Positions 27,247 through 53,300 of a stretch of DNA of 64,000 bases are shown here, piece after piece (positions within the stretch are counted from its first letter, which is position 1; each line of letters starts with the position of its first letter). A program made the position numbers and the translations under genes. Origin of the DNA: a virus (taxonomy: Duplodnaviria > Caudoviricetes); IMG/VR virus record IMGVR_UViG_3300037484_000435, positions 256,001-320,000 of that record; one strand, written 5' to 3'. The notes under the pieces are model-generated. The model had not been told where the DNA came from. It ran no database searches and saw nothing but the letters and a program-made list of their open reading frames with translations.

Positions 27247-27257
27247 CTACTTTTCTC

Positions 27258-27980
27258 CTAACACGTTCCAGGACATATAGAAAAAGGTGTCTCCATACTA
27301 TAAGTAATAGTGGGAGCTTGGGGACTATTATAAGAAAGAGTAAACCCAGTCAAATAGGCATCTACATTGCTAAAACCGCCACAACCAGCCTGTGCTGTGA
27401 CACTCAGTTTAAATGTTGTATCTATTTCGTCTGTATCAAAATTAATTGGCCCGCCAGTATACTTCAAATGATTGTATTGAGTTGTAACTTGTGCCTTATA
27501 GGCAGCAAACTGATTAGCTTGAATATTAAATTTTGGTGCTGAAACCCCGCAGCCATCAACTATGAATTTTGAGTTTCCTTCGAGATCACCAGTAACAGTC
27601 ACCTGCTTCTTTTTCAGCGGGATCATAACCCAACGCCCCTTCTTTTTACCGAGACCACCATCAGCTAGGAGGCAGTCAGAATCAAGCCTACAGTCATAAA
27701 TTAGTTTCCAAGGCACATTTAGAGACAAGTTAACATCACATATCAACCCACACGTATAATCTTCTGGCGGTACAAACGGATAAGCCGTAATCTGTATTGT
27801 AGTTTTTCCAGGACCATACAAGTACAACCATTCATTAGGCAAAGGTATACAGTCGTTTGATTTGGGCTCCCTCTGTATATCAGGGGCGGTATCAACGGAA
27901 ATACTATTTACTCTGCCGCTAATATCCTCATTATTAACAAGAATTCTAACCGCGGTGGTATTACAACAAGGACACGCCAT
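27258..27980 (-). CDS. Cys-rich tail tube-fold-like structural protein (240 aa)
   Basis: 12 Cys counted. VNSISVD...GKTTIQITAY and AYLTGFTLSY...TITYSM parallel the strand pattern of the 243-aa protein. The GGAGG RBS lies inside the last codons of endonuclease 1. Confidence 0.55.
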   Translation of the reverse strand: MACPCCNTTAVRILVNNEDISGRVNSISVDTAPDIQREPKSNDCIPLPNEWLYLYGPGKTTIQITAYPFVPPEDYTCGLICDVNLSLNVPWKLIYDCRLDSDCLLADGGLGKKKGRWVMIPLKKKQVTVTGDLEGNSKFIVDGCGVSAPKFNIQANQFAAYKAQVTTQYNHLKYTGGPINFDTDEIDTTFKLSVTAQAGCGGFSNVDAYLTGFTLSYNSPQAPTITYSMETPFSICPGTC

Positions 27981-27984
27981 TTAG

Positions 27985-29884: not shown

Positions 29885-29892
29885 CCTCCTTA
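29885..29892 (-). promoter_or_regulatory. Full-consensus Shine-Dalgarno (TAAGGAGG) that overlaps the stop codon of the 832-aa gene
   Basis: The minus strand reads ATT-TAAGGAGG-GGT-ATGGCT, indicating bacterial-type translational coupling. Confidence 0.75.
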
Positions 29893-32388
29893 AATCTCCA
29901 TTGGATTATTATACAATTGGACTTTTACTTTATCGCCTACTTCCCACGGCCAAGGTTGTACATTCCATGCATTAACAATACCTATCCCTTGCACCTTTAC
30001 TTTAAACAAACTCCCGTAATCATGGCTAACGATACGCCCATCAACCTCTTCTGTTTTAGCCCGTTTACTTTTCAACCCGCCAGCGGATGCTTGATTAATC
30101 GTTATCGGCCCCACCTCAACCGTCATATTAAAAACTGAACTGTCTGTGTACTGAAAAGTAATAATGTTGATGGTGCGGGGGCCATAAGGAGTAGTAACTG
30201 TTTTGCCTAAAGAAGGTACCTCTTCTTGTGTCCTAGGAGGACCACATACATAGGTCATATGTCTATTAGGCTCGTCACGAAAACTATCAAAGTAGCCAAA
30301 TAAGTTTCTAGCAATCTCGTGACAAGTATTCCCTATACTGTCAAAAGAAGCACGCAGGTTAGCTGGATCCACTCCGTCTCCACCACCTCCACCGGTCGAA
30401 AAACTCGGGAAAAGAAACGGTAAGCTCAATTCAAGGTTAACTCCTGTAGATGCTTCTTGCAATTTTTCTGTATCCCCGACTCTATTTTCTACAGTACAAT
30501 ACATATTATCCCACACGTCAGTGTCTGGGTCGACAACCTTGTCAAACCCAGTGTTACCGCACGCAGCTACAGGGGGAGGCATATCAACTAAATAGATAGG
30601 CATAACTCTAACTTTTATTCCAGACAGGAAGGATTCTACATCTCTTCCTTTTCCCTGCACTATTAATCCTGGACGGGAAAGATTCAATTTAGCCCACCAA
30701 GTATCCACCGTAAACATACTATCACCACTAAGACCAAATAAATACCCAGGACGCTTTAAAGACAACTCGTTAACGATCCACGCATAATTACCATATCCTG
30801 CCATAGACCCCAACCCATTGGCCCAACTGTGTGAAACCCGCTTCATCATAAGGAACGCCCAGTGGTTTAACCATTCTACAGAATCTCCACCACATGCAGT
30901 AGAGTCTGGGCCCCAACCCCAAATTCTTCCACCAAACCCAAAACCATCTTCCATTGTACAGTAAGTACCGCAGTTCGGGGCCTGGGCACGTATAGCATAG
31001 CTTATTCTGCCCTCTGCCGATACACTCCCAGCTGGTATTTCCACGTAGCTGGAGTGGGGGATATCGAAAGTCTGTGATTCCTTTTGTATGCCAATAAAGA
31101 TAGGAGTAGTCGGACCTATACTAATGTTACGTGCCCGAAATTTCTCAAAACCCATTAGAGCAGCACCATTTCCAACCATTGCTGATGTGGATTCATACAT
31201 ATTATCCTCTTGGCTGTCGTAACAAATATTTGAACCAACATCCCATTTACTTATGTCAGAAAAATCAATCTGCGAGATAAGGCTCCCATAACCAAAAAAA
31301 GAAGGTATTGTATGTTCTGACCATTGAATACTAGGCTTCTTTTTGGCATCATCAGAGGCTTTACTGACACTCTCACAACTATCACTAGTAGAGGAGGAAT
31401 CTAAGCTACCCATATCCAGTAGAAGAGAGGGAGTGCTTCCAGGACCAGTGTGACAACTAGGACCAAAATAACTTTCTAGACCGTTACCCCCTCCCACCGA
31501 TAGTAAGGCAGGGAACTCCGAACTTTTAACAAACTGTATATTGTAATGACGTAATAAATTGTCATCCTCCGTACCAAAGTCTACGTCCGTCATCCAGAAT
31601 AATATACTCATATGGGGACCGACCTCAAATAAATCATTAATACCGTCCCTATAACCACCCTTTTTTTCGTACTCTGGATAAATAATTCCACCATGTTGAC
31701 TAAAAATACCATGGGAACATGTAGGGTCATCCCCGGGGTTATTTCCCTCGGAACTTACTTGGCCCCAAGTGAACTTAGTTCCCTGAACAGGCGGGGCAAA
31801 CCTACTGCTCTCGATACTCATATTCTTAGCACCCATATTTGGAACCAAATGGTTCATCAGAGGGCCAGACAAATCTGCAATCTTGATTATCGACCCCGCA
31901 CCTCCATCAATTATCTGCATCCAGTCACCGCATTGACGAAAGGGAGGGGGATCAGCAGCTCGAACCACCACCATATCAACAAGAGAATTAAACTGAACAC
32001 TGGGTAAACAATACTGTACATGAGCCAAAGTAAATATATCAGAGGAGGAACTACTACCCTGCAAGACTTTTTGAAAACGAGCGAACCCAAATTCATCCGC
32101 AAAACATTCCCAATATTCCCCGTCCAACAATTTAGCGGAAAGGGACATACGTATACAGGCATAGGGGTCTTGATTGAGTATGTCGAGGGGACAGCAAGAA
32201 GAATACTCATTCTCAGGAACGGTACCTCGGATAGGTATATCATATTTCTCTAACACCTTACGTGCTAAATTGTTACCTTGTTTACGGCACTCTGCTGTAG
32301 TTTTGTCCCACGCAGGTTGAGCACAGGGGTCCCCATAACGTAATTTACCTTCGTCCTTTAATAATCGTCCTTGTGCAGATAATGTCAT
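29890..32388 (-). CDS. Tail tip/baseplate hub-like protein (832 aa, Cys-rich) with a possible C-terminal OB-fold
   Basis: First gene after the TMP. About 19 Cys. The C-terminal VDGRIVSHDYGSLFKVKV...WEVGDKVKVQLY is OB-fold-like. ECFADEFGFARF and PSLGKTV...INIITFQY...MTVEVG are hub-like segments (by eye). Confidence 0.55.
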   Translation of the reverse strand: MTLSAQGRLLKDEGKLRYGDPCAQPAWDKTTAECRKQGNNLARKVLEKYDIPIRGTVPENEYSSCCPLDILNQDPYACIRMSLSAKLLDGEYWECFADEFGFARFQKVLQGSSSSSDIFTLAHVQYCLPSVQFNSLVDMVVVRAADPPPFRQCGDWMQIIDGGAGSIIKIADLSGPLMNHLVPNMGAKNMSIESSRFAPPVQGTKFTWGQVSSEGNNPGDDPTCSHGIFSQHGGIIYPEYEKKGGYRDGINDLFEVGPHMSILFWMTDVDFGTEDDNLLRHYNIQFVKSSEFPALLSVGGGNGLESYFGPSCHTGPGSTPSLLLDMGSLDSSSTSDSCESVSKASDDAKKKPSIQWSEHTIPSFFGYGSLISQIDFSDISKWDVGSNICYDSQEDNMYESTSAMVGNGAALMGFEKFRARNISIGPTTPIFIGIQKESQTFDIPHSSYVEIPAGSVSAEGRISYAIRAQAPNCGTYCTMEDGFGFGGRIWGWGPDSTACGGDSVEWLNHWAFLMMKRVSHSWANGLGSMAGYGNYAWIVNELSLKRPGYLFGLSGDSMFTVDTWWAKLNLSRPGLIVQGKGRDVESFLSGIKVRVMPIYLVDMPPPVAACGNTGFDKVVDPDTDVWDNMYCTVENRVGDTEKLQEASTGVNLELSLPFLFPSFSTGGGGGDGVDPANLRASFDSIGNTCHEIARNLFGYFDSFRDEPNRHMTYVCGPPRTQEEVPSLGKTVTTPYGPRTINIITFQYTDSSVFNMTVEVGPITINQASAGGLKSKRAKTEEVDGRIVSHDYGSLFKVKVQGIGIVNAWNVQPWPWEVGDKVKVQLYNNPMEI

Positions 32389-32394
32389 TCGTTA

Positions 32395-35300
32395 TTAATC
32401 TCCAAATTCACTATTAGGTGTGCGAGGTACTGCTGACGGAACTTGCTGCTGACCAGCAGACGATTTAGCCTGATTCGCTGCTTCTAATGCATCTTTGGCT
32501 ATCCTCTCCGCGTCGGTAGCTTTCTGTACTGCAGTGTCTACACTAGTCTTCAAACCTGATGTGTCTTTTTCCTGTAGTTTTGCCTGATCTTCCAGTTTTG
32601 CCAGGGTCTCTTGAGCCCTATCCACTATACTTTGTAGTTGCTTGGTTAATTCTGGGCTAGCAGCATTTTCAGCAGAAGCAGCAACTCCGGCTGCACCCTT
32701 AACTGCATCTAGGGCCTCCTTAACTTTTTCTGTAACTGTGTTTTTAAATTCCTCTTGTGTTAGGAACCCACTTTCTTTAACTTGATTCGCTATAGCTCCA
32801 ACTGACCCCTCTGCCAAGACTGCTGTAACTTGAGCACCTGGGGCCAACTCAACTTTGATACCTTGGAGTTTCTCAGCGACCGCACTACCAATGTTACCAC
32901 CAGCAGCATTTAAGGCTTCCACTAAGGAATTTATAGCGGTTTCTAAAGTCGAACCCTTCTCCGTACTTTGATTCTCCAACTGCCTAAAATTACCTTCAGA
33001 CGGCGTGGCATACGGTGAAGTAGCAGGGGGTACCGCTGGAACTTCCGTACCTGCTGGTTTAGTTTCAGGTACTGTTGGATTTACTGGTGGAGTAACTTCT
33101 TTTGCTTTCTCCTCTTGTTTTGAATTTTCTAGAGCGGTCTTCACATCTTGTACCGCTTTTAAGATACCTTCCTCAACTGTTTTTGTCTCTAAAGCTTTCT
33201 GGATGGCCCCAAGTTTCTCTTCCAATGGACCTAGGGAGGCTCCCATTTTATCTGTATTAAAAACCCCTTCTTTTGTGGGTGTTGTGGGATTTACCCATGC
33301 TTGACTAGGTTCCATTCGTAGTGGAGTCATTGCAGATGTCACCCCATCGCCTGCTCTGTAGGGGGAGGAATACTTACTGGGGTCAGTCGACACAACAACT
33401 TGAGACTGTGTAGATGCTGTACTAGGTTGAAAACCCCTATAGTCGTAACCTTTATTACTCTGTGCTGTATCTGGGTTTATCCCCGTGCTAAGCATTCTGT
33501 CTCTCTCTTCGTTTAACGAAGCTCTAGTACGCATAGCGGCGGCGTCACCTGCATTGGCTCCTACTTCATCAATACTACCAGCACGATTAACTCTACCCAT
33601 CATTTGAGCGTCAACAATATGTGTTCCCCTACCCCCTAACATTTCAGGCCAGTTAGTAACAAATACTTGAGTAATCCCCTCGGCAGCCTTTGCAGCTGAA
33701 ATACCGCCTGCCTGTCCAGTTTTAGGTCCTCCGTAAACTGGTCCCACACCAACCTTATCCGGAATAGAGTCTGAAGCAGCTTTATAGTAGCGAGGATCCA
33801 CAATACCCTTTTCTTGATCAGCATAATAGTTAGGAACTTCCCCGCCCGCGTCTCTAATCTTTTGTTTTTGTTTCTCATAATAGGACCATGCTTCTGGTTC
33901 TAATTGTACACCTGCGGCTATATGTCTTTGAGTTCTATACGCAAGCATCTGGTCTCTTGTCCACGCACCACCAGTAGCAGGTTTTCCTTGATCGGCTAAA
34001 CCACCAGTACCAGTAGCAGGACCCTCAGCAGGAAATAATCCTCCCTGTGGCATTACCATACCACCAGATAGACCAGCATTCATAAAATCACCTTGGTTAG
34101 GAAACGCTCTAGTAAGATCACCAAAATTCTTGGGCATAGGTAAAATATTTGGCTGTGTGGCGGCATCTACACGAGCCTGTTCTTCCCCAGGAGTTCTTAA
34201 AATAGAAGGTTTTTCGTTTGGTACTTGAATACCAGCAAGTCGCATATTGGCAGCTTGAACACTAGTACCCATAGTTCCTGGCATAATAGCAGGGCCTTTA
34301 AGCCGAACCTTTAGAGCTAATTGTTCTTCGGGAGTATTAGCCCCCTGCTTCATATAAGCTTGTTCTTCCCAAAGTTCCATATGCTCTGGTTTAATCTGGG
34401 ATTCTCTTTTATTAAACAAATTGCCCATATCCGCACCAGTCCAACCCTCAGGAACATTTCCTGTGCGTAACGTATCCTCTTGCTCTGGCGTTAACCCAGT
34501 AAGTCTAGACTCCCAATCTCGACCCGTCCCTGTGCGTGCTCCAGTAAAAGTACTTTTCATATAAGCAGGCATACCGCCCGTAATAATTTCTTTTTCGGAA
34601 ACTTGCTGATACTCTGTTAATTGTTTTCTTGCGGCTTCCTGCTTTTCATCAAACTCTTTTCCGCCCTTTCCAAAAAGACCCTTTATGCCTGTCCATCCTA
34701 TTTGCCCACCAGAAGATTTTGTAGCCATATCATACGCTTCTTGTCCGTGTTTCTCAACAAATCCAGCTTTTATTATTTCATCCATTTGGCTACGAGCCCC
34801 ACTATAAGTATGGCCCCTTTTGCCACCAGTAATAAATTCTTCAGCCTTTCCTATACCCCCCCAAATAGTTGGAGAGATCAATCCTTTGGCTCCCCCTAAG
34901 GCATACTCTGGAAGGAATTTGCTGACCACATTTTCTCCCATTTCTAGAGTTCCTCCTAGGGCCCCCATAATCGTTTCGGCTCCTTTCAACATGGTGTTAG
35001 GCACAACCCCCAAGGGCTCTACATACGGAGCAATTGCTTCTACAGCACCACCAAGTTTTCCTTCTTTTCCTAACCCCAAACCCTCTTTAACTTGCCCCCC
35101 TACTTCTCCCCAATACTTGGAGGCCATCTGTAAAGTAGGATCCAAGGCTAAGCCTTTTACACCTTCGTTTGCAAAATTCATGGCTATCTCACTAGCTAAG
35201 ACACCACCACCAAACCTCAATGGAACTTTAAGAGCACTCAATCCTTTTAGATTATTGAGCCCAGGAAGAGTTTCCGATACCATTGTTTGTCCCAGCCCAA

Positions 35301-38300
35301 AAGTCTTTGGCATAATTGTAGCATTAGCCGCTCCACCAGCAATACCAGAAAAATAATTAGGCCCCTCCATACCTTCAACTTTGGAACCCTGTTCGTAACC
35401 GTGCAGCCCCAAAGAGGCTAGCATCAAGGGCCCCATGACAGACATATTCCCAAACCTGTTCTTAGACAATTTCTCTGCTGTTCCCTTGGCACCTACAAAC
35501 TCGGCAACTTGTGCCAGAGAACCCCCGCCCGCTAACTTTTCCAACCCCTCTAGTTTACCACCAAAAGCCATGCCCGCTTTCGTAAAAATTCTAGCCCCAG
35601 CCATTCGACTGCCCAACCGCTCGTTGCCCAACGTCGCTGTTTGACCAGTTATAAACTCTTCTCTCAGGGGCTTAGCGGCCTTAGTACCTAACACAATGTC
35701 TCTCCCCACATCTGTCTCGGTTAGATGACTGACAGTTTCCAACTTCATCTGCTCAGATTGTTTTTGGGCCAAAGCTTCTCTAGCCACGTCATATTCCTTA
35801 TTACCTTCAAGACCCTGATCCCGATATTTATCGGCTAGTTCCACCTGCTCTTTTTCCCAGTCTTTCTGGTAACCAGTCTTTTCAACACCTTCAGGGGCAA
35901 CAACCGCTTCTTCAGCTGCTCTCCATAATTCTGGTTTTTCAGCAAAAGCTTCTTTGGACTGCTCGTATAGATTCTTAATTAATTCTGGTCTCTCCTCAGC
36001 AGGACGATTATAAACAGCCTGTTCCACCGCCTCATGAAGACCGACGTCCTTCCGATACTCCCGAACACTCTCGCTACCTGATCTACCGCGACGCTTAGCC
36101 GCTGCGTTCTCTTCCATGAATAGAGCATCATAAATTTGCTCTCCCATTTCTCCAATGCGGTATTCCGAGCCCCCGCGATGCTCAATACCAATCTCCTTTC
36201 CGCTCTGAGTTATTCTAGCCCCACCTTCGGTACCACGCTGTTGCATCTCACTCAATCTGCTTGTTAAATAGTCGACAGACTTTCCACGATCAAATTCTTT
36301 TGTCTCTTTAATCTGGCCAGTTCTCTTCATCATGTCTTCCAGTTGTCCTTCAGATAATTGAGAGACACCTCTACGAATAGCCTCTTCCCCTCTAAGTTCT
36401 TTATGGCCTTGTTTGATATTCTGCCACCAACTCCCTTTCTGGGTATCCGGGCGTTGACCAGTGTTATAATTATAGTATTCACCGAAATCCAATCCGCCCC
36501 GTGCTTTTTCTCCCGCGGTACGTAAATCCCGCGTAGCATAATCTTTAGCCCCGCGTGCTAAATCCTTTACATATTCCCACCTAGTATCGCCTTCCTTTCC
36601 TGTGTCATAGGTATCATATGTCCCTCCAAGTGGCCTCTTCACAAAATCTTTAGCCTGTTCCCACTGCTCTCTCCATGTTTTTTGAGGACTTGCGGATTCC
36701 TTTTGTCTACTAAGATTGTCTATTTGTTCCTCACGTTGTTTTATTGATTCTTCCGCTTTTCGTCTTTTTTGTTCATAGTTGACTTGATTAATCTCTGCCT
36801 TTTCATACCTTCTTTGCCCCCTTCTAGCTGTTCTATCCCATATACCAGGTTTTACCTCCTTATAGTCCTTATTTTCGTCCATAGTACGTTTTGCGTCATC
36901 AACTTTGTCTTTGTATTCCTTCTCAAGTTCCCTGTCCTTTTCTAATCTTTTGTTCTCTCTGTCAATCTCTTTTTGCAATTTTTCTTGTGATGGTTCCTGT
37001 CTACGCAGTTGTTTTACATAATCCCAACCTTCACCTGCTGCAGTGCCTGCGAGTCCCCCCAACACGGCTGGAACTAAACCAAGACCAGAAGCAGCACCAA
37101 GACCAAGAACTCCACCGATAACAGCCCTACGATGCTTTGAAGCAAAATCAAGCACTTTATTTCCTTTTTCATTGAAACTCTCTCTCCAGCTCCGCGCTTT
37201 TACCTCAGCAACCTTTTCAGCTTGTGGTTTCGCTTCTGGCATACTTTTATCTGCTGGTTCGCCTGAGAACTCCGAGAAATCTGGTAACTTATTGGTCGCT
37301 TTCTCTGGTTGAGGGGCTGTCCCACTCGCAGCCTCTTGCTGAGATCTTATCCACCAGTCCCTCGAACTCATCTCGGGAGAAAGGCCTTTACCACCAGGCA
37401 GAGACTCAACACCTTCGCCAACTGAACCGCGCATCGCTTCGCTTTGTTTTCGGAGGCCTGCCTCCATCCGGCTCTCTTTTGGGGCCTGCTCGGTTTCTAT
37501 TAGGGCTTGTTCAGCCCCCCCGACATCTCGGGTCTTTACCTCATTAAGGAGAGGTTCCTTTGCTTGCTTTTCCCATAGATCTGCTAAATTATCCAACCCA
37601 TATGCATGAGGGCTTTGGTAAATATCAGTAACCGCATGTTGCATCACTGTAGACCTTTGGTGCTTAGCTTCTATAGGGATGCCTGCCTCTAGGGACTCTC
37701 TGACTGCCTTGTGCACCGAACCCATCTGAACTTTCTGTATAGGTTTAACCCCCAGCTTTCTCTCGCCTTGTTTCTCATAATGAGCCAACTCAGCTTCCGC
37801 TTCAGCTAAGACATTTTCTACATTCACGTGGTGGTAAGCTGTGCCACCTCTCCCCCTAAACTCTGCGTCTAGTGCGTCAATTTTTACCTGATACTTACCT
37901 GCAACTTTTCCAGGAAAAACATTTTCTCCAGCCGCTTGTGCAATCTTTGCTTTATCCCGAGCTTCATTTCTCTCATTAACTAACTGTGCCCGCTTATCTC
38001 GATATTCTTGTTTGGCTCTTTCTACATCACTGAGTGTACCTTCTTGTGGACCCTTACTTTCCACTTTACTAGTCATAGCCCTAGCTTTCTCTTCTGCGAG
38101 TCTCTGGTAATTTGCTAATTCCTCCGCTTGTCCAGCTTTGTCAATAGCTCCACCTTGCGAAACCCTCTCGTTTGCTCTAGCTTGACGCTCTTGTCTAGCT
38201 ATTTCTTCTTGTTGTTGACGTTTTACTGCCTCTTCTGCTTGTTTTCGATTCTGCTCCTCTTGCATCCTAGCAGACTCTTCCGCTTGTTTACGTGCTAGAT

Positions 38301-41300
38301 CTTCCTTTACAGTGTCAGGTGTAGTAGGTTCTTTAGGAGCAACGCCCGCAAACTCGTCATACATTGCTTTAATTGCTATGTCAACTCCCCCTGTTTTATA
38401 GGCCTCCCCAGCACCTTTAGCCTCAAAGTATCTTTGGTTCCACTCAACTCGCTCTGGAGATTTCGCCCGCTCAGAAGCAGCTTGTTCTTTCTGTGTCCGT
38501 CCTTTATCTAATCCTTTATCTCTTCTCCATTTTATAAATACATCTTCATGTTCTTTTCCCCACGCCTTTTTATGTTTACGTTTCCATTCTTTCTCCTCAT
38601 CGGTTTCCACCCCTTGGCTAATATCCTCGTAAGCCTGATTGACTGCTTGAAAACGCTTGACAGCCTCATCCGGAAGAACCCCTTGAGCAACAAGTTTATC
38701 TGGGTGTGTTTGCTTAACTTGTCTCCTATAAGCCTTCTTGATCTCCTCTGGAGATGCATTTCGTTCTATCCCAAGTATCTCGTGCGGTGTTTGGCCCCCT
38801 ACTGCCCCATCCCACGAAGCACTTTCACTAAAACCACGACCACCCACATCTCTTACTTCTCTTTCCATATCCCTTAAACGTAGCATTGTTGGTGTGACAA
38901 CTTGTTCAGGAAAACTTTGCTTCATTTCTCTCTGGGCCCTACGTTCTGCACGTAGCTTTGCTCGGTCCTCTTTTCTAGGAGCAACTAATTCTGGGTATCT
39001 AGCACGGGTCTGTTCGGTAGATTTTCTAATAGCCTCAGCGAAATTAGGCGCATAACTTTCCATTCTATCAGCCATACTTTCCATCATACCCACAGTTTGT
39101 GGTTTTATATCTGTTCCCACACGTGTTATCTTATTTAAACCTTCGTCCCCAACAGTTTCTCTAAATTGCTTGAACAAACGCATACCCGCCGTCATCTTTT
39201 GTTCTGGCGATAAAGTAGGAGAGACAGTAAAACCTCTGAAAACACCGCCCCGCTCGCCCAACTTGTAGGACAAACTTGCCGCTTTCTCATGTTGAGGTGT
39301 AAACAAATCAAGTACATCGTAGCCACCCTCACGGCCCTTTGACGATATTTCCTTGTGATACCAGTCTGGGGCGGGCCTTCTCTGCACAGGTGTTTCGACC
39401 CCACCAAACATACCCTTTAGAGAACCAAGTAAACTAGCACTCTCGCTAAAGTTATCCTTATTAATTACAGGTGCGGACTCCCTCTTACGATTAAGTAACA
39501 TATAAGGATAGGCGTAACGTGCTTGGTTTAATGCTGGTGGTGTAAATCCCTTTTGGTCTTCTTCATCCTTTAAAACCTTTGGCTGTCCTTCTAAAACAGA
39601 CTCGAAAGCCGCTTGAACTGCCCCAGTTCTTTGTTGTGGTTGAGCAGTAGTTAGGGTGGGGACTTGTAAAGTTTCCTCGCCCACCGATTGAATCATACGT
39701 TCCTTTGCAGTTTGAATAAGTCTTCTATCTTTCTCTATAAGCTGCGGACTTTTAAGAATTCGATCAAGAATGGCGGCTCCCCCGCGAACCATATTCTGCA
39801 TACCTGGGTCGGTTATCTTTTCTCCAAATGCGACTTTAGATTGAATATACCTTATTATCATCTCTTCAATCTTATCTTGATATTCTTGTTTCTTATCCTT
39901 ATTTGAATAACTCCCCCCAGGACCAAATTCGGGAAGACTGGTATAAGCCTGCACTTCTTTTAATATACGCGAGTTGGGCGCAAAGTGTAAACGTTTATAA
40001 ATATCTTCTGTTGTTTCTCCCAAAGGTTTCTTATCTACTTGTGCGTTACGTAAAACTTTTGCCACAGGGTGCAGGCCCGCTTCATGCGCAACACTCAACC
40101 ACGTAGGAACGTCATACCCAGATTCACGCATTTGCCCGTTTTCTAAATCAAAACGGCTTCCTTTTCTAGATCCAGTAGAAACCATGGCTGCAGAACCCAC
40201 ACCACCATAAGTGCCTTTCTGTGCTGATATGCCACGAGTTGTTAAATAACCAGTTGCTGTTGGGACTTTCCCAATATCAGGATCGTCTGTGAATGAGAGC
40301 AATCCTCCCTCAGTATTATATACTCGGTCAGCCTTAAACCCTTTAGGGGCAAGATATTCCCAAGCTTCTCTATTCAACGAGGGCTTAATTGTGTTAGCAA
40401 TATTCATGGCCTGCTGCCCAAGATCTGCCAATGGGGGTTCCGTTATTTTAGTAGGTTGTCCACTCGGAGCCGTGGTAGGTGCTGGTAAAACAAAAGGAAT
40501 AATATTAGGAGATCCAGTGGGAATTGTTGCTGTTACTGGGGTCTCTGATATAATATTACGAGCGGGCTTAACTGGAGGACCCACTACTGTAGAAGTAGCA
40601 GCGTAGACTTGTCCTGCTTGATAACTCCCTGTGGATTCGATAGCAGATTGAGCAGTGCCTCTTGATACTTCTGGTGGTGTAGACGGCACCGCAGAAGAAC
40701 CTCCACCACGTTCATCCTTACTGGTTCCCGTTCCCTTATCCCCACACAAACACTTTTGTATAGTAAGTAATGTTTCGGATATTTTATTCAAAAGTTTGGA
40801 TTTATCTAGGCTCTCCTTCATAGCTAAATCCATAACCCTGACCATTTCTCTACCTTGAGCCGACTTAATGCCTGCATCATCGGCCTTGCTCATAAGGTCC
40901 CTCATTTCTCCGCCTTCAGGCCCTAACCCTTTTAAATAAATCTGTTCTTGTTTTAGGTCCATCGCTGGTTGATAATTAACAACACGCCACATCTCTCTGC
41001 CCTGCGACGATCTAACCCCGTGCTCTGAGGCCATCTTCATATTTTCAGCTTCGTTTAAAGCAGACATTTCTGCTACAGGATTTCCTTCTGCGCGTTTTCT
41101 TATCCCAGATAACCACTCGGCTTCTTCTGCCCCAGCCATCGGTTTCAATTGCCCAAACATACTCCCGCCCAGTATGCCAGGCGTTGTTTCAGAACCATAA
41201 ACATTCTTCAAAATCCAAGGGTCTACACCAGCACCGCCACGGGCGGTAGACGCTAAACCTTGCTGCAAAGATTGCTCTTTCCACTTCTCTACGTATTTTT

Positions 41301-44300
41301 GATAAACTGTATCTGATGTTGTATCAGTTACACTAACATTCCTGCCCACATTTATATCTGTCCAATCTTTCCTTTCATTAATGGATTTTAACTGGGCTTC
41401 TTCTTGTTTTTTTCTTACTTCTTCTGTTGTGAAATTATTAGTTGTTGTTGTCGAGGTTGACGAAGTAGCCCCGTAAGTGGTCTGGCCCAATACACCTGCC
41501 TGTAATTGTGCCAACATATCTTTGGCGTAACCTGTAGGATCCATTACTTGTTTAAAAGCGGCCTTTTGGTCTTCAGTTAGGTCTTTTGTACTTCCAGTAA
41601 GAGCTTCTTGAAGATTTCTGATCGCATCTACAATAGGAACCCAAGTGAATCTTGCAGTTTGTGCTGAATCCTCCACTTTTATAGCCTGCTTGAGGATATT
41701 GGACATTTGTTTAAACTCTGAGAGGGACTCAAACCCACGACGTGTAGCAACCCCACCTCTGTTATCAACTATATCCGCAGCCTTCTCCATATCTTCCTTA
41801 AGTTTAGATTTCATAGGTGCAAACGTCTTTACGAGATCAGGAAACTGACCCCCATACATAACTTCAGTTTCTTCTATCGTCTTTTCTGCTTCTTGTGCAA
41901 CCCCTTTTTGTCGTTCAAATTTTTGATCTTCGCGTTTTTGTAAGTAATTAATCTGCTCTTCTTTTGCAGTCCACGTTATACGTTCTTTTTGTGCTCGATA
42001 CTCCCCAGGTTTAATTTCACCAGACCGATTCTTCGCGTCTAAGGCAGCCAACTCCTGTGCTTCCTTGCTTCCTTGACGAAAAGCCACCGGTACTTTTTCC
42101 GGGTATTCCCTGTCGAATTCTTCATAGTCTGAGCTTTGGGTACGGTAATCTGCCCCCATACCCGGCATAATTACATTCTTCCCACCTATAGTTTCCATCC
42201 TAGCCCGCTGAACTGAAGATGGGTGTTTACCCATCTCTGTGTCCATACGAACCGTGTCTAGACCCCAGCGAGTGCGTGCCATAACTTCTAGTTGCACTGC
42301 GAGTTGCTCAAATTTCTGGGCAACTTGTGCTACCTTTCCTAACATATTAATTTTCTCAATAAGGGGTTCGAGTGCTTTACGGGCCTCCTCAGCAGACCCC
42401 TTGAATACAGTAGACGCCTTTCCAAAAATTTCTGCTTGCGCCAGATACTTTTCTTGTTCCTTGCCTGTTGTGATACCGCCCATAAGTCTGGCTTCAACTT
42501 CTTTCTGCTGAAAAGCCCCAGCTTTCTCAGCTAACGTATTCACCGTAGCGGTGCCCATATGTGCCTCAGCTGCTAGATTAGGAGCATACTTTGTGACAAC
42601 CTCCCTCGGGGTTAATTCGTGTTCAGCCTTAGTCTCTTGCCATTGATACTCAGCAACGCCCTTAGCTGCTCCCGCCACAGGGGACTTTAGTTCTCGGGAA
42701 AGCATGTCTCCAGAGATTCTAGCTAGGTCTCCCATCGTCTGCTTTAACAGTTGCATCGATTCTTGTAATGCTTCCATCTTGGCCAAAGTAACAGCAAATT
42801 GCTGGGCTAAACCCTCAAGGGCTTTCATCTGCCCCTTGTATGCCTCGGTAAGTCCTTCATGTTTTTGCTGTAAAAAGGCTAGTTGGCGATCTAATTCTGC
42901 TACTGACTCCTGATCGCCCGAAGCCGCAGCCATAGTCCTCTTTGCTTGTGTTGCTTGAACTTCCCCCGCCGACCTGCCAAGTTGCTCTTTCCATTGTCTT
43001 TCCAATTCTTGGGCCTGCATCCCTGTTTCATACATCTTCGGAGCATGCTTCGCCATGAGTTGGCTAGGGCTCATCTCATAGGAGTACCATTGTGGGCGTT
43101 GGGTCTCCCCCATATACCCAGACTGAGTAAAAAGACTCGCGTTACGACTATCACTAATTTTTTGTCCGAGAGTTCCCACAGCAGTCGTAATATCCACGAT
43201 CATCTTTTTAGTTTCCATAACTATCTTGATTTCCCACAACTTCTGGGATGCTTTCTTGAGAGTTTCATCTAGGGTAGACACTTCTTGGGTCAATGCTTCA
43301 ATCTTAGCTTCAGCAGCTTTCATCCCTTTTTCATATTGATCCGCACGGTTCTTATCCCCACCAGGTTGTTTCTCCTGTGCATATAATGAAGCCATTTTCT
43401 GTAATTCAGATTTTGTAGCATCTATTTCACTAATAACCTGATTACGTCGCATTTGGGCTTCCTGAGCTTGTTTAGCTTCAGGACCACCAAACTTGGCAAA
43501 ATATTCTTGTGGATTGAGATCAAATTGAGTTCTTGGTCCTTCTTGAATCTGTGTGGGCATCGCTATCCCGGCCATAATACTACCAGGAGCCTGCTTTAGT
43601 GCAGATATATTAAATTCATGGGGAAGGGCTACTTCGAATTTAGCACGCATCCCTACCAACATATTATTCAGCTGCTTAACAAAACCTTCGGCTAAAAGTT
43701 TTACAACCTTACTCTCTTCCGCCTTGAGTTCCCTGATTAGCTTATCTAGCTCCTCTTTTGTTTTAGTTGGAAGGTCTTCCTTGGCTAATTTCTCCTCAAG
43801 ATCTTTCAACATTTCTGCAGTTCTCTCCAGATTATTCTTTATCCCCTGTAGATTAATGGAGCGACCCGCTTCTAGGTCACGTTTAGTTTGCTTTAGTTGG
43901 TCTAACTCAGTATTCCACTTACTTTCGTTAGATGATGCCGCCGAATAGTTACTTTCTGCACTATTCAACTCATCAAATCTCTGCTTAGCCTCGTCTACCT
44001 TCTTTTTAAAACTAACTGCCTCAGGAGTACCAAAGTTACCCTTGTATTTTTCACTGTACTCCCCAGATAGCTTAGACCACTCTTCACCTAGATTTCTATC
44101 TTTATATTTCGCCTTAACTTTTTCAAGTTCCTTAGCTGCTTTTTCTCTTTCAGGAACCGCAGATTTAAGAGCCTGCTCTGCCGCAGGGATACTCGTTTCA
44201 ATAGTTGTTTTTAACTTTTCTCGTTGGCTAGTAGTAAGCTCCGCTTCTTTAGGTAACTTGTTTACCCGACTCTGCTCGTTTGCGACAGCTTCTCTCGCTA

Positions 44301-47300
44301 TCGCTGCGGAATCCATTGCTGCTCGGGCCTGCACGTCAGCTTTTTGAGCCTCCTCAACCATGGCCCGCTTCTGATTAATCTTCTCTATATCACGTTTATT
44401 GTCTGGATTTAAAGCAACTAATTCTTCCGCCGTCATCTCCGCAATAGGTTTGGGAAGTAGATTTTGTGTTAAAGGAGCTACCTTTCCATAATTAGATGAC
44501 ATTGGTCCCCACGAATAAGTTGCTTTTTGTAGTTCGGCACCAGCAACCCCTGTAACCTCATTACGATTCCATCCGAGTTCTGCACGTTTTATTTCCAACC
44601 TCGCCCTCTCAACAGCCTGCATCTCTTTGAACAGTCTCATCATTGCTTCCCCAGCTGTGATGATACCGGCGTAATTATCACGTAATTCTTCCAGTTTCTT
44701 GTTAAGGGCATCATACTGCTTAACACCAGCATCAATTTCTGATATTCCTCGTGCAATCTCATAACCTGCCGTTCTTGCTGCCCTTAACGGAACCTCCGCT
44801 TGTGCTTTATCACGCAAGGCGTTTAACGCCTGTTCAATAGAGCTAAGCCTATCTATTTGTGGCCCTAATTCCTTTTCACTTATTTTTCCGGCCTTGCGAT
44901 CTTCTAGTAATTGTTGTCTGCGCTTCGCAACAGCTGTTAGCTGCTCCTCAATCTCTGTACCCGCGGCGGACACCTTTTTAGATTTAGTTTTTCCCTTTAG
45001 ATCTTCCAAGTTATCTAGAAAAGGAATAGTTTCCTCCATATTTTTTAACTTGTCATCCTGTGCACGAGTAATCTTACCACCTAAAGCTAGAAAAGTTTCT
45101 CTCATCCCCACTGCTTCCGCAGGAGTAGCACTAACTATTCGTTTTGCTTGGTTTTGAAAATTTATAAAATCACTATACTTTCCACCTTCATTTTTTGTAA
45201 CTTCTTTTTGGAGCTTAGGATTATTTTCTAAAGTAATAAAACCCAGTTGTTGTTGTAATTTAGTTCGCTCACCTACACTCTTTTGTGATATCTCTTGCAT
45301 TTGTGACTGGTAGGCCTTTTCTTCAGATTCAAAACGGGTCCATGCTTGATAAACAGCTGGTTGTTCTTGCTTAAACCGATCCATGGGAGTAGCTTCTGTT
45401 ACATCCCTCATCCGTTGTTGTATATCTGGTCCACCAAAACCTCTACCAAATCCCATATTTTCTTTTGAAGTTTTAAATGTTTGGGCAAGCTCTTCACTGG
45501 CGGCACGAGCTTTTGCAAAAGCGGCTGTTAAAGCAAGAACTTCGGCATTATCATTCTTCAACGATTGCCTCCTTAATTCCATTTCCTCCAATTCCTGCTT
45601 GATTTTTTCTGGATTATCAGAAATCTTCAATGCTTGAGCCTTCATCTTATCTCTGAGCGCTTCTATTGCTTTTTCCAACTCTTGGGTAGGTGTAGGACCG
45701 ACACCCATTGCTTTTAATGGACTAAATCCTAACAGGGGGTCAAACCCCAGAGTGTCTTTAGCACCTTTTCCCAAACCAGCAGCGATATTTATAACTTTAT
45801 CAATGCCACCTTCTTCTTGTGCCTGTCTTTTTAACATCGCTATTCTTTTATAATCTCGGTCTAATTCTCTGTAACCACTCTTATCCGTAGACTTTAGGTA
45901 CTTACCAAATTCAGTTTTACTAAGTTCGTCAAACGTACCTTTATCCCCGCCAATAAGCTCAGACATGTACCCTGTTTGTGACCTCATTCGGTCCTCCAAC
46001 ATTTCACTGTCCATCTTTTCATTAAAAGATTTCATACCAACCATCATGCCACCAGCACCAAGCAAAGGCACTAGAGCACTTGTTAGTTGGGAAGGAACAC
46101 TTACTGTAGATTGTTTTCGTAGATCTTCTAAGTCTTTATTCGCCCTAGCAAATTCTGACTGCTTTCTAGCCGCAGGGCTAAACGCGGACATATCGACTAC
46201 TGGATTAGCTTTACCAACCAATTCTATACCCATAATATTTTCATATATAAAATCTTTTATTTTGGTTCCCAAAGGCTTAACTAAATCATACGCTAAAGCG
46301 GATGCGGCTGCACCAGCAACAGTTCCCAAAGGACCCGCAAATACAGACCCCACAGCACTGAAAATCCCCATAAGTATACCTTGTAAGCCAAGGGCACCCA
46401 CCAATTCAGGGACAATAGATGTTAGACCACCAACACCATATTTTTCTTTTGCCTCAGTTACCCCAGAGATAGTTTCCGCTACAACCCCAACAGCTGGAAG
46501 GGCGTGTCCGACACCCCTTAATGCCGGTAAACTTTTTGCAACACTTGGAAATGCAGTAAGAATTTTTCCTGTGGCAGTTTTCCCCAAATGACCAAACTCT
46601 TCGGCCACAGGTAAACCCTTATTAAAATCAGCTATTGCTCGTTCTAGTGCGGCGGTCTCAGCTTTAGCCCCTCCCATGATTGTCTTTAACGTGCCACCCT
46701 CACCGAAGAGATTGCTTTTCCAAGTCATACCTTTCCCAGCGGCCCCTCCTATCTCTTGTGCTACCATTACATCTGGTCTTATTACTGACATCACACCTTG
46801 CCCAAAAGCTCTTGGCATTGCACCAACGTTTCCTAGAGCAGGTTTTCCACCACCTACATTCATCAGTATAGAGCCAAGTCCTGCGACACCAGCAATACCT
46901 CCGTAGGCTTGTGCATGTGACAACTTAAATGTCTCTTCCAACTTAGAAGCAGCATACTCAGTCCCCATCATAGTCAGCATCATACCAGTCATTCCAGCAC
47001 CTTTACTCGGAGAAAGTCCTGACGGCCTCGGCATACCAGTTCTCTCCAACTCTTGAAAGGCCAAACTCATACCACGTATATTTGTTCGTATATCTCGATT
47101 ACCTTCCGCCAAGGAAGCTGAAAATCTCTGGATTTCCTTTCCAGCTTGGCTCATAGGGTCTATCATCTCAGCTTTAAGGAAGTCATTTATTCTTGCTTGT
47201 AAAACATCACGTGTTAATGGCTGTTGCACTGTACCAGGAGCCCCTTCAGTTTGGGTCAATGTCGCGTGGAGTCTCTGGGTAATTTCTCCTGCATTAATTG

Positions 47301-50300
47301 GTCGTTCCGTTCTAATCATCTCAGTTAAATTCTGCAGTGGTTGCACAAATCTATCCGACCCATGAGACACATATTCACGAAGTCTTTCTGCATATATAGA
47401 GTAATTCCTTTGGAGTTCAGGAGGAAGTGTTTCGATCGCCCTGCTGAGTTCTGTGTAAGTAGTATTTACATCCTTACCAGCCCCCGTTTTCATCTGATTT
47501 AGCATTTCATTCAAACGTTCAATTGTACTATAAAGACGAGTTTGGCCAGACACAGTTTCAAAATAATTAGCTTTACCCGCCTCAACATCTGTTATTAGTT
47601 TTTCATGGGTACCTAGCGTTTGTGCTCGTGTCTGTAAATCCGTATAAACTTCAGCGACAGGCTTGTTTCTGTAGTAACGCCGCATTTCAGGGTCCATCTT
47701 TACCTGACTTAGACGACTAACATTCTCTGCTCCCTGCTGCGTAAATTCTTTAAGCACCTCGGAAACTCTCCGCATCTCCGCATTTACGCGTTTTAATTCA
47801 GCCTGTAATTCGGTTCGTCGTACCGCCACATCCTCTGAGGTCCTAAACATTTCTTGGGGCTTCAAAGCAGTTTCTACAATAGTGTTCACTCTGTTTCGTT
47901 CTTGAACATGCCTTGTATAAAGTGGATCACCTCTACCCACATTATTCCTATCCATTTCTCTTATATTTGCTTCGAGTTCGTGCAAGCGGTGCCACTCTTG
48001 CTCTATTCCTAATTGTTTTAAAGGACTGACGAGAGAACCTTCCGCTGGGGTTCTTAACCCTTGTGTTAATGCTCCTCCACGAACAGCAAGATGCTCTTTT
48101 GCCACACCAGCCATAATAGTGTACGCACCCATAGGATCTCTAGGTAAAGCTGGTGATTGGATTCCTGAAGCAATCCCCCTGCGGTAGAGATTTTCTATGA
48201 TTTGCCCGCGGGTACGGTGCGTAGCAACACCTGGCCTCACATCGTCACCTAAGTAACTCTGTAAATCTTGTGGGCTCAATACATCACGAGCAGGGAAAAT
48301 GTCTGCGGCCAGTCTTTGTAACGCTCCCGCGTTATTTCGAGCTGATCTTACTCGTCGAGCCGATTCAAGAACTTCTGGGGTTCGCATGTCCACACGAGTA
48401 GAATCCACAACCCGTGTCGCCCTAGATCTCTCATCTAAGCCCCTTATAATATTTTCATACTCTCTATTGGCCTCTTCGGGCAATGGCGTGGTGTTCCCTA
48501 ATCCATGTGCCTCTCTAAGCATATTTTCGATTCCCATACGTCTAACACCAGGGGCTGGTCCACGTCGAGTTTGTCTGTAGAGGCGGTTCATTTCCCCTGT
48601 CATGGCTTCAGAACTTATATCAACACCACGCTCATTCACTATCGCTTCTGCCACTAAACGTCCCGCCCTATCCTGTTGTGTTCCGGGCATCATTTCTGCA
48701 TCAATAGCCCTCTCTCGTAATCTTCTGCGTAACTCTGCTTCAACACGGTTAGATACTGGTCTTAGTTGTGTTCCATTTATTTCCGGCATAGTTCTTGCCA
48801 TAATTCTATTTCGGGGAGCAAAGAATCCCCGATCTATCTGTTCCGTTCTAATTAAGGCATCGTGCAGTTCTTGTAGAGGTACTGTTGCTGCTGGGGTACC
48901 TGCGGGACCCGTTCTCCGTTTCATCGAAGCTTCGGCTTGATCTTGAGAAATTCTCCTATAAAGTCCTTCTTGTACATTTGCGGGTAAGGGCACATCTCCC
49001 TGATTTAAGGTGTAACCCTGTTGTTGCATATTTTGCCGTGCTTCATTAAGAACAAATCCAAGTTCTCCCCTACGGGACAATTGATTTTGTAATACATCTA
49101 TTCCTTGTTTTTCAGTAGCTATACGAGCATTACGCTCACGGCCAGTTTCTGCACGACCTTGTTGATTAGCAGGATTAGAAAGATTAGTTTGTAATGTTTG
49201 TAGTCTTCGGATCTCTTCATGTTGCGGACTCATTCCACCTTGAACTCTGCGGTCTATTTCATACTGTAATTCCGTTGCTAAACTTTGTCCTGATCGATCA
49301 GTCTTAGCTGCACTAGTACGTTTTAGGTATGCCTCCCGCTGTTGAATCTCTCGTTCAATGTCTGCCTCAGGAACTGTTATATCACCAACAGTAACTCTCG
49401 AACCCCCTCTTTGACGAGGAACTCCACCAGAAAGCAATTCTCTTATCTGTGCCAAACGCTTTTCTAATACACCAAACTTTCCAATATGTTTATCCCTAAT
49501 TTCTTCAAGCCTTCTTATCTCTGCCTCAAATTGCCCCGCTTGGCTAGAGAATAAAGACTCAATTCCAGCGCGTGCTCTCTTCAAATCATCTAGACGAGCT
49601 TCGAACTTAGCCCTGCTCTCTCCTAACTTCCTCATTATGTCGTTGTCGGTGGCCGACTCCAATGCCTGATTAGTGCTGTCTAACAACTTTTTGGTGCTCG
49701 CAATATACTTATCATTTCTACGTAAACGGCGTTCCTTAAGTTCAACTGACTCCATTAGGTGCTGTCTCGGTTCAGCAAGTTTTGCATCAGTATCCATAAT
49801 ATTACGAAAAGTGTCTTGATATTGAGTTCGCGTATTTTGTAAAATACCAAAGGACTCAATAATTGGTAATCTGTGTTGAACATCCTGGGGCGTCATACCA
49901 AAACGACTAGTGTTGGGTCCCCTTAAATTATCTATAGCAGACCCTGCATTTTGAACATTTGGCATCCCAACCATACGTGTAAAGAACTCAGAGTGATTTA
50001 GTGCATTAGGTCCCGCTGATATTGTAGGTAAACCAGTCTGTCCACGAGACCTACCTGCATAATACTGAGACATTAAATTGTCCATCCAAAATTGCTGAGC
50101 TCGACTCTGCACAATATCTAAGCCCCCCATACCAGGAAGTGTCCCTCTTTGCCTCATGAACTGTTGTCGCATGAATTGTTCTTCTAGTTCCGCACCAACA
50201 GGGGTGCCTTTACCACCCAATAACCCAGACATAAAATTCCAAACCTGTTTGTATTTAGGAGTAGCCACCGCACCTATCCCTCCAAACACAGCCTGTTCTC

Positions 50301-53300
50301 CAGAAGCTGTGGAAGGTGTTAACGACTGATTACCCATACCCAACTGGGCTAGATGAACTTGTTCGGCGGTCTGCATCATACGTTCCTGAATACCGCGACC
50401 AGTCATCCTCCTCGTGACTGCCCCATATATCCCACCAGCAGCCGCTACTCCAGCAGCAAGAGGTAAAGAGGCACCAGCTAATGTGGCCATTCCTCCAGCC
50501 GCCAACGTAGATAGAACTGGATGACCGGCAGTTAATCCTAGTATGGAACCTTTGATGCCCCCCAATCCGGTTAGAGTACCAATAGCACCTCCCGCCATAA
50601 AACGATTCCGAGCCCTAAATATATTTGAAGTTTGCCTATCCGTGCCAACCCCACTAGCTATCTCTTCCATTAGTCTCTGAGAATAAAATGGGTCAACACC
50701 ATAACGACCTTGTGCGGGCTTTGCCCATTGACCAAAAGCACCTGCTCTTATACCACCATAGGCCCCCAGAGCCGCACCAGCCTCAGGTGCAATGTGCATC
50801 AGTTCCCCAAACCCTGTTGGTCCCAATGCCCCTAGAGTTCCAGCAGCACCAGCAGCCATTAGGCCTGGCCTAAATCCGGTTCCTAAAGCGGCTCGATACC
50901 CAACGGAACCAAGAGCCCCTCCTATTAGTGTTCCAGGTAATCCGGTTCCTAATTCTAACGCGGACAGCCCAGCTCCCAACATAAAACCTCTAGTGCCTCC
51001 TCTCTCGGACAAGGCCCAAGGCATACGTTCTCCCGCCCTTACATATTGTGGAGCACCCGCTCTAGCCCAACGTTCACTTGCACGATCATATAAACCTTCA
51101 AGACGTCTCCCAGCAAAAGCTCGCCCTATAATTCCGGGTTGCCAAGCCCTAGCCCCCGTAATCTGGTCAACTACAGGTGTAGGTTGTAAAATATTTCTAG
51201 CAGCACTTACAAAGGGCGAAGCAACTCGGCTTATTGATTGAGTAGCCGAAACACCTATAGCGGATTCTACCCGTGCTCTTACATTTGTCCGGAGAAAATT
51301 AATGACGTTGTCAAATACACCAATAAACGATTGTTTACCTAGACCTTGTGTCAAACTTAATTCAATAAGTCTTAATGAATCAGCTAATTTAAGTGGCCAT
51401 TGGCTTAAGCGTAATGCAGTAGACACACCCAGATTATTAATACGGTCTGTAACAGTGGTGTCCGCAGCCCATGCTTGTAACCTATTGATACCATCTATCC
51501 AACCACGCATAGTCCTCCCTACTGCCCCCAATGCACCACTCAGCCCAAGTAAACTACGTTCAATAACAACCCCTGCAGTTGAGGACATACCCGGAAGACC
51601 ACCAATAGATGCTCCTGCGCGTCCTGCTAAACTAGACAATCCTTCTGCAGCCCAAGCGGTGGGACGAAGTGCCGTTAATTTTGCAGTTGTCCCAGTTATC
51701 GGAATCATCCTTTCTCTAACAAAACTAGTTATTCCCCCTAAAGCCTCACCTTTTCCCAAAGCCCCTGTAATTGCACGAACAAAATCATACGTCATCTGCA
51801 TATCTTTTTTAAGGTTACTCACATGGGGAAGTAAAGTCATTACACCCGCCAAACCACCTATAGCTGCCATTCCAACTGGCCCCAAAGCAGCTATTGAAAG
51901 AAGTCCCGCACCACCCAACATAGAGCCACCCAGCACATGCCCAGCCACACCAGTGCGAGGTCCCACAAGACCACCTAATGCAGAGCCTCCCCTAGTCCCT
52001 GCTCCAAGAAAACCACTAAACATAAGTGAGCTTATTACAGTAGGCATTAACCCACCTAAGGCGGCTCCTACTGCAAACCTGCGTAGTCCACTTCTCCCTA
52101 ATGTAGGACCTGCTGTCCCTTCCGGTTCTCCATTTACTAATCTCTGGTACCATCTGGAAGACTGTGCTGGAGTAGTAGCAGGAAGCAACTGCTGACCAGC
52201 CGAGGTTTCAAACTGCCGAGGGTCTCTCATAGCCCGTTTCCAAATATCACCTTGAAAATTAGGCTGAGTTGACCAATCGGCAAATCTAGGTTGCCGTTCT
52301 CCGTAGCGTTTTGCATCTGTTATGAGGTTCTCTAGAATACGAGGGTCGCCCAAATTTGTTTGTGTTGGAACTGGATGTGTTGCTAGGAAAGATTCGGGTA
52401 ATCCTTTTACCAATCCTCCCACACCTTGGAAAGCTCCAGGATAAGCCCGTGTGATCAATTTAAAAGCCATATAAGCAGCAGCAGCAGTAACCGCCGCACC
52501 CATAAAACTCATGCTTTGCGACTGCTCAATGGAAGCTCTAAGCAAACGAGAACGTGGGGCCAACTGGTCATCACTGCCTGAACCTATTACACCACCAGCT
52601 GGAGCTGCGGCCCGCATGACTGCTGTGTTGTCCGCGATTTGTCTTAACCAATCTGAGTGGTTCAACATAATACGTCTATCCCAATCCGCAGATTGTGATA
52701 AAGATTTTAAGAGAGAATTACCAGCCTCAGTAGCCTTTAGGATATTCCCACCAAAGAATTTCTCCGCAACTTGACTGCCTAGATACGCCCCAACACCAGC
52801 TTGTAGCGGTCGAAGATAGCGACTAGGCTCTGGCATTCCTCCTTCCATAATTGCTCTAGCCCGTGTAGCTTCTCTTTGTAACTTGTCTCGTTCAGCCTTT
52901 TCCTTTTTCCACTGTACCAGATCCCTTTTAGCCAAAAACATTGGATCAAATCTATCCTTCATGGAAATCTCTTCTATACCAATTAACTTAGAAAGCCTAT
53001 CCTCCCCAAACACGTTACCCAAGGCGTTGTTTATCCTTCGTCCTATATGAAGGTCAGATATTCTTTTGCTTATTCGACTTGGAAGATTATTAGTTAATGA
53101 GTTAATACCCTCCATCCAAAGACCACCCAAATCAAAATCTTTCCAAACTCTCTCGGCCATGGGAAACTCGGGTTCTGGTCGGCTAACGGCAGGCGGCCGA
53201 GGTATATTCCCCCATCGTCGTTGTTGTTCCTCCATAGGGGTTCCTAGTCTCCTATTAGCAGCGATTGTCGCGGTTTCTCTCTCAAAGTTTGGTACGGGCA

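Follow-up and report, generated by a model that had tools for sequence, protein, structure and literature searches.

A J-domain encoded within a giant predicted tape measure protein of an uncultured tailed phage

Tape measure proteins leave the phage tail before the DNA, and the C-terminal end, which lies at the tail tip, goes first; this order of exit is established for lambda-like tails. J-domains have one established activity: through the HPD motif, they make an Hsp70 hydrolyze ATP, and the Hsp70 is thereby locked onto a client close by. The window analyzed here, a stretch of 64,000 nucleotides (positions 256,001 to 320,000) of the 545,322-bp IMG/VR virus genome IMGVR_UViG_3300037484_000435, carries a gene that encodes a J-domain in frame with the core of a predicted tape measure protein.

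The best precedent for passenger domains that reach the cell interior is gp96 of Thermus phage P23-45, a 5,002-residue tape measure that contains an N-terminal virion RNA polymerase (DFDGD at 779–783), a metallopeptidase and membrane segments, and whose fused polymerase transcribes the pre-early genes after injection (PMC10770324). The protein studied here is similar to P23-45 gp96 (and to P74-26, G20c and TSP4) in being a giant tape measure with an N-terminal DFDGD region (polymerase-like in the present protein), HExxH motifs and hydrophobic segments, and in carrying an enzyme that would be meant for the cytoplasm after ejection. However, gp96 has no J-domain, RNA ligase, phosphoesterase or RNase H, and it is one-third the length of the present protein, whose core is of the TP901 type. 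Mycobacteriophage TM4 is another case in which the ruler protein takes an extra functional domain to the cell during infection: its tape measure has an embedded muralytic motif (Piuri and Hatfull, 2006, as cited in PMC12619734), although this motif acts on the wall and involves no chaperone cofactor.

Stand-alone phage J proteins, such as RB43 Rki and the DnaJ-like genes of large phages, resemble the present case in having a J-domain with HPD, in being encoded by phages that lack Hsp70, and in being presumed or shown to work with host DnaK. Unlike the embedded domain, they are separate proteins of roughly 90–380 residues with the J-domain at the N-terminus, and, instead of being built into a virion protein, they are produced once infection has taken place. 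In Sec63 and Pam18/Tim14, J-domains are fixed at the exit of a protein-conducting channel. These class C J-domains lie near membrane segments and have Hsp70 grip the emerging chain (the ratchet model), which is comparable to the mechanism proposed below. Sec63 and Pam18 reside stably in the membrane as parts of the translocons of the cell itself, whereas here the J-domain would lie within the translocated or channel-forming chain, and the similarity is limited to the J-domain. The type III secreted effector HopI1 of Pseudomonas syringae, with a C-terminal J-domain, is likewise injected via a narrow conduit and recruits the Hsp70 of its target; it differs in being a separate small protein that acts in plant chloroplasts and has no structural role in the injection machine.

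The minus-strand translation of window positions 38311–39090 is free of stops and includes the motifs IKKAYRR, HPD and KRFQAVNQAYE. Residues 102–158 of this translation match PF00226 with an E-value of 1.2e-14 and 54.6 bits, against a curated cut-off of 27.8 bits, and the same match was recovered in a scan of 3,513 residues. The embedded domain scored 57 bits to Pfam DnaJ in a six-frame search of the genome and 95 bits to a custom J profile, which found a single J-domain copy in the tape-measure open reading frame (ORF); HPD also occurs once in the window ORF, at ORF residue 8411. In an alignment of 71 sequences, comprising the embedded domain and 70 J-domains taken from an exhaustive database search, invariance is confined to the H, P and D columns, and the embedded domain keeps every nearly invariant residue (L, G, A, Y, A, A and Y). 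Its helix II reads EEIKKAYRRQVKQT and contains five K/R residues. An AlphaFold2 model computed with this alignment as input reached a pLDDT of 94–98 over the domain, with helical flanks of lower confidence. The leading Foldseek matches in the PDB were all J-domains (rmsd 1.1–2.8 Å over 55–64 residues), one of them being that of E. coli DnaJ in complex with DnaK (5nro_B; 1.8 Å over 57 residues), and a PDB sequence search with the domain returned 43 chains, exclusively J-domains, Sec63 among them. The J-domain is authentic, with both motifs and fold intact.

A first-pass annotation of this DNA had described a full consensus J-domain within charged flanks. The HPD, helix II, KRFQAVNQAYE and the J fold bear this description out, but the canonical helix IV does not, as a long charged helix is found in its place. 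The flanks are indeed charged, with K/R/D/E accounting for 39% of residues 12,601–12,900, and are predicted to be helical. In class A/B DnaJ proteins (type I/II Hsp40), the J-domain is followed by a G/F-rich region, a CxxCxGxG zinc finger and C-terminal client-binding domains. A Pfam search over the 3,513 residues around the embedded domain gave DnaJ alone, with no G/F region or zinc finger. Because none of these regions, nor any client-binding domain, follows the J-domain and the charged helix occurs instead, the embedded copy is, by its predicted domain order, a class C J-domain and not a class A/B DnaJ.

These features bear on the idea that the J fold was retained while the contact with Hsp70 was lost, leaving a small helical element that serves as a spacer or as the docking site of another phage protein. 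The non-canonical helix IV, a Pfam score about half that of the phage's own stand-alone DnaJ (103 bits) and the single occurrence, without relatives to show conservation, would fit such a silent fold. However, the HPD, the basic face of helix II and the hydrophobic core are intact and near the consensus of the 70 J-domains, and decayed J-like domains, such as Pam16, usually lose the HPD, so that this explanation is considered improbable. A predicted complex of the J-domain with residues 1–605 of E. coli DnaK and ATP scored 0.27, against a mark of 0.34, and was not used for or against binding.

The frame that contains the domain occupies genome positions 288,395–332,533 on the minus strand and comprises 14,712 codons, open throughout. 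It is stop-free across 44 kb, with 12,580 codons before the J-domain and 2,070 after it, placing the domain at 86% of the protein length. A GTG two codons past the upstream stop is the candidate start. The ATG at window position 63936, which the first-pass annotation had taken as the start of a 10,000-residue chain, has to be abandoned, as the frame begins 12.5 kb beyond the window. Its placement of the J-domain in a tape measure holds, the domain being in frame with a core that matches PF10145 (E 2.2e-26; 93.4 bits against a cut-off of 33.2) and 13 PHROG tape-measure families (best E 2.7e-64). The same core is matched by 126 GenBank phage records, most of them annotated as tape measure. Judged by these matches, the protein is a tape measure with a TP901-type core. 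An alternative genetic code behind the long frame was rejected, as the standard code already leaves the frame open and the ORF statistics of the whole genome agree with code 11.

An assembly error, in which a J-domain gene fragment was wrongly joined into the tape-measure contig, had also been raised as a concern. The only sequencing run that holds the domain, a sediment metagenome run that may be the sample of origin, has a low depth of about 5–6 fold, and its contigs leave a gap at window 38123–38446, 165 nt from the domain, both of which would be compatible with such an error. On the other hand, the frame is open on both sides of the domain, GC and GC3 are flat across it, and a Logan contig from a separate assembly of this run covers window 38447–40042, reaching 164 nt below and 1,252 nt above the J-domain, with zero differences. 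Because the composition is uniform and the separately assembled contig spans the domain unchanged, a chimeric join at the J-domain is very unlikely. A search for RNA sequencing runs holding the J-domain stretch found none. In a freshwater metagenome run from a different study, short contigs were 95–100% identical to window 36517–36866 and 40033–41000, which are parts of the tape-measure gene that leave the J region itself uncovered; a close relative therefore exists in another habitat.

An alignment of the core recovered 80 related loci in IMG/VR, where a single-sequence pattern scan of the core had found none. In at least 28 of the 80 loci, the tape-measure frame leaves the 22-kb locus at one or both ends and hence exceeds 7,000 residues. 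A whole family of uncultured phages with tape-measure frames of more than 7,000 residues is thus visible in records of 44–300 kb (loci L172–L251). The closest relative is a 256-kb record, 97% complete, with a tape-measure ORF of 12,316 residues that is colinear with the 14,712-codon one. The two align over three stretches (Table 1), and no alignment was obtained past residue 11,698 of the present protein, permissive thresholds included. The next gene is again conserved, the 832-aa and 837-aa products sharing 32% identity over the full length (blastp, E 1.6e-139), and it is followed by conserved genes of 354, 240, 243 and 231 aa whose order is kept in the relative. Because the earlier parts of the protein and the next genes are conserved while the stretch between them is unalignable, the last ~3,000 residues, including the J-domain, are interpreted as a hypervariable or replaced module. 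The J-domain, on this comparison, is a lineage-specific passenger, an accessory and perhaps adaptive module in the fast-changing C-terminal third. No Pfam domain was found in the C-terminal 3,273 residues of the closest relative, and nothing usable came from Pfam, PHROGs and ESM Atlas searches of the J-domain flanks and the last 1,500 residues, ESM Atlas giving only weak tape-measure and Gly-zipper leads (<0.9) for the flanks and the C-terminal end.

A second large lineage-specific block of about 2,800 residues (7,230–10,015; approximately window 41440–54250) is without counterpart in the closest relative and has no recognizable domain. If the whole chain served as the ruler at 0.15 nm per residue, the forms of 12,316 to 14,712 residues would correspond to tails of 1.8–2.2 µm; for this reason, probably only part of the giant chain serves as the ruler.

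A J-domain in the tape measure was found in none of 79 related virus records, while 16 of them encode a J-domain solely in a stand-alone ORF of 250–289 residues, the counterpart of the 272-aa DnaJ encoded elsewhere in this phage genome. Nor was one detected, by precomputed Pfam assignments and our own profile, in 63 large tape-measure homologs from a collection of 5.8 billion proteins. Pattern scans returned generic J-domains in all cases, with ORFs of at most 380 residues for the 80 best viral loci (IMG/VR) and at most 745 residues for the 80 best metagenomic loci (JGI metagenomes). The J-domains of 39 GenBank phage records belong to ordinary DnaJ or CbpA genes, five huge phages having been inspected by hand. 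When the J-domain and its surroundings (1,200 residues) were used in an exhaustive phmmer search, 1,332 proteins were found, all of them matched in the J-domain alone, and the top match was a protein with six J-domain repeats. Word-indexed searches found no giant or large proteins sharing the J region, and a DNA search with 5 kb around the J-domain had no match in GenBank phages. No description of a fusion between a J-domain and a tape measure was found in a full-text literature search, in agreement with the first-pass annotation, which knew of no such protein. As far as these searches reach, the J-domain in a tape measure is unique. It joins two kinds that are already known, proteins with a J-domain and tape measures that carry passengers, and does not form a category of its own.

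The N-terminal part of the protein invites the comparison with P23-45 gp96. Upstream of the core, an LDFDGD..H motif is present here, in the closest relative, and in 36 of the 80 related loci, and the D, D, G and D of DFDGD are invariant in an alignment of 35 sequences. Residues 1,220–2,419 were modeled from an alignment of 35 relatives, with a mean pLDDT of 63 and cores of 70–90. The best 50 Foldseek matches of the model were all of the RNA polymerase beta' type (E about 3e-3, probability 0.85–0.95), and VIA-align superposed it on beta', Rpa190 and Rpb1 with a Z of about 13 over about 340 residues at an rmsd of about 4.4 Å, while a sequence search with the region matched no solved chain in the PDB. 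The model suggests that the N-terminal region is a beta'-like predicted virion RNA polymerase of the P23-45 gp96 kind.

Neither Hsp70 nor GrpE was found in the phage genome, and the partner of the J-domain, to which binding is inferred, must therefore be host DnaK. The preferred reading, held tentatively, is that the J-domain may act after ejection, recruiting host DnaK to the injected tape measure. Stored in the tail, the tape measure would be expelled into the cell envelope at infection with its C-terminal end first. The J-domain, 2,100 residues from the C-terminal end and 500 before a hydrophobic Gly/Ala segment, would arrive at the cytoplasmic side early, where its HPD loop and basic helix II would trigger ATP hydrolysis in host DnaK. 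DnaK would then clamp the neighboring unfolded chain, which would keep the chain from slipping back and aid the refolding of the polymerase, ligase, phosphoesterase and RNase H domains as they follow the J-domain through the narrow tube. Delivery to the cytoplasm is plausible by analogy, given the tape-measure core, an N-terminal third that in this family is made up of predicted nucleic-acid enzymes needing a cytoplasmic substrate, and the example of gp96. That tape-measure segments can enter the cytoplasm, as the first-pass annotation had assumed, agrees with the published P23-45 case (PMC10770324) and with the conserved polymerase-like N-terminus here.

Several observations weigh against this reading. 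The absence of the domain from the tape measures of all the related records surveyed is one of them, and the J-domain-bearing form is known from one metagenomic genome only; because there is a single carrier genome, selection on the domain is unmeasurable. In known tape measures, the C-terminal part often has its role in the envelope, where Hsp70 and ATP are absent. The two HExxH motifs at residues 3,593 and 4,372 make it possible that the chain is cut before assembly, and the PF00226 match covers profile positions 2–54 of 63, leaving the canonical helix IV unmatched. Furthermore, the tape measures of relatives attain 7,000 to 12,316 residues and lack a J-domain, because of which, as far as the compared sequences tell, the domain cannot be a general requirement for the import or folding of giant chains. 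The first-pass proposal of a ratchet or folding need, if extended to giant chains generally, fails on the closest relative and on these other proteins.

At 86% of the protein, the domain is made late if it is to help during translation, and it leaves early if the C-terminus goes first. In an alternative reading, the J-domain would recruit DnaK in cis in the producing cell, keeping the ~1.6-MDa chain soluble and extended until it is enclosed by the tail assembly chaperones and the tube. Such a role needs no membrane crossing, and the cytoplasm of the infected cell certainly has the Hsp70 and ATP that J-domains need. The phage, with three J proteins and no Hsp70, seems to have made a general investment in J proteins, and a P23-45 preprint proposes that chaperones keep the fused polymerase inactive during tail assembly. 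However, the domain leaves the ribosome only after 12,580 residues and is poorly positioned to guard the nascent chain, the relatives mentioned above build their tape measures without it, and a stand-alone DnaJ that is conserved in the family is already encoded. A role in assembly is rated somewhat less likely than action after ejection, a preference for which the evidence, namely where the domain lies and what is known from P23-45, is circumstantial.

If host DnaK is recruited to the ejected chain, a self-built, Hsp70-driven import system can also be imagined, with the C-terminal hydrophobic segments forming a conduit in the inner membrane, the J-domain at its cytoplasmic mouth, in the manner of Pam18 or Sec63, and DnaK ratcheting in more than 12,000 unfolded residues; the virion RNA polymerase would be ratcheted in, and the leading DNA end along with it. 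This more demanding scheme is considered unlikely. Slightly less likely again is an effector role in trans, in which the delivered J-domain would hijack or titrate host DnaK at entry, for example, by altering sigma-32 control, as is the case for RB43 Rki, or by competing with host DnaJ. The hypervariable, relative-specific location of the domain is where a swappable passenger or effector module would be expected. Rki, as cited in PMC12619734, shows a phage J protein acting on host DnaK regulation, and the defense protein bNACHT25 senses perturbation of host DnaJ, as cited in PMC13581612. On the other hand, the few copies delivered per virion would be outnumbered by DnaK molecules in their thousands, J-domains that lack a client-binding part usually act on whatever they are tethered to, and release from the chain is unsupported.

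The finding bears on how the proteins and DNA of long-tailed phages pass the inner membrane and on what energy source drives the passage. The J-domain in a tail-fired protein leads to the testable hypothesis that a phage harnesses host DnaK at its entry site, where DnaK, if this is true, might either ratchet the chain inward or restore the fold of enzymes that have to travel unfolded. Being small, the domain could be tested in E. coli without the phage. In addition, uncultured phages with tape measures of 12,000–14,700 residues and a polymerase-like N-terminus may take the P23-45 case, the only one studied so far, on to much larger proteins of more elaborate make-up.

Three J proteins are encoded in the genome in total, two besides the embedded domain (Table 1). 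The possibility that the embedded domain is a recent copy of the phage's 272-aa DnaJ was rejected, as the two share 36% identity. The 272-aa DnaJ gene adjoins RuvC-like, Gln-rich SSB-like and primase-like genes of a replication module, and a similar order of primase, DnaJ-like and SSB genes is found in mycobacteriophage McGee (PMC9583779).

Table 1. Positions of the J-domain, the predicted parts of the tape measure protein, the stretches aligned with the closest relative, and other genes. Residues are those of the full 14,712-codon frame unless stated otherwise.
Feature	Nucleotide position	Strand	Residues	Remarks
J-domain (Pfam DnaJ match)	window 38617..38787	-	12,581-12,640	8,383-8,442 counted from the window ATG
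HPD tripeptide	window 38698..38706	-	12,610-12,612	loop between helices II and III
Tape-measure gene, window part	window 32395..64000	-		stop codon 32395-32397; continues 12,533 nt past the window
RNA-polymerase beta'-like region (predicted)	locus L004 5377-8976	-	1,220-2,419	outside the window, upstream of core
Region with TLDFDGDMISIH			1,998	upstream of core
RNA ligase (predicted)			about 3,061-3,217	upstream of core
LigD 3'-phosphoesterase (predicted)			about 3,410-3,505	upstream of core
RNase H (predicted)			about 3,705-3,830	upstream of core
Two HExxH motifs			3,593 and 4,372	
TP901-type core (PhageMin_Tail)	window 58837..59430	-	about 5,702-5,899	PF10145
Thirteen Gly/Ala-rich hydrophobic segments				scattered along the chain
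Gly/Ala-rich hydrophobic segment nearest N-terminal of J-domain	window 46348..46425	-	10,037-10,062	Kyte-Doolittle 1.52-1.82
Gly/Ala-rich hydrophobic segment nearest C-terminal of J-domain	window 37066..37122	-	13,138-13,156	candidate membrane segment; Kyte-Doolittle 19-residue mean 1.73
Hypervariable C-terminal third (by comparison with relative)	window 32398..41439	-	about 11,700-14,712	contains the J-domain
Aligned with relative residues 1-3,852			1-3,829	46% identity
Aligned with core of relative			core	38% identity
Aligned with relative residues 7,280-8,920			10,015-11,684	24% identity
Next gene, 832 aa	window 29890..32388	-		syntenic with the relative's 837-aa gene
Stand-alone DnaJ, 272 aa	genome 212,133-212,951; locus L001 874-1692	-		J-domain, G/F region, CxxCxGxG zinc finger
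Third J-like ORF, 117-aa open frame	genome 116,671-116,799; locus L003	+		HPD intact; 20 bits, below the Pfam cut-off
phrog_4645 endonuclease paralogs	window 23819-28797; L004 13737-14642; L005 9316-10134, 13359-14525			

No named family was matched by the genes downstream of the tape measure, and no sheath gene was detected. At least seven paralogous endonuclease genes (phrog_4645, with secondary matches of LAGLIDADG/HNH type) are interspersed with the tail genes that flank the tape-measure gene on either side. Other giant genes, of 5,054, 3,405, 2,543, 2,163 and 1,162 codons, form a run on the same strand (window 5888–21052, minus strand; genome 222–250 kb). A C-terminal similarity is common to the 5,054-residue protein, two others of 858 and 1,109 residues (the last open at the window edge) and one region of the relative's tail module, and the three proteins may form a family of fiber or tip proteins.

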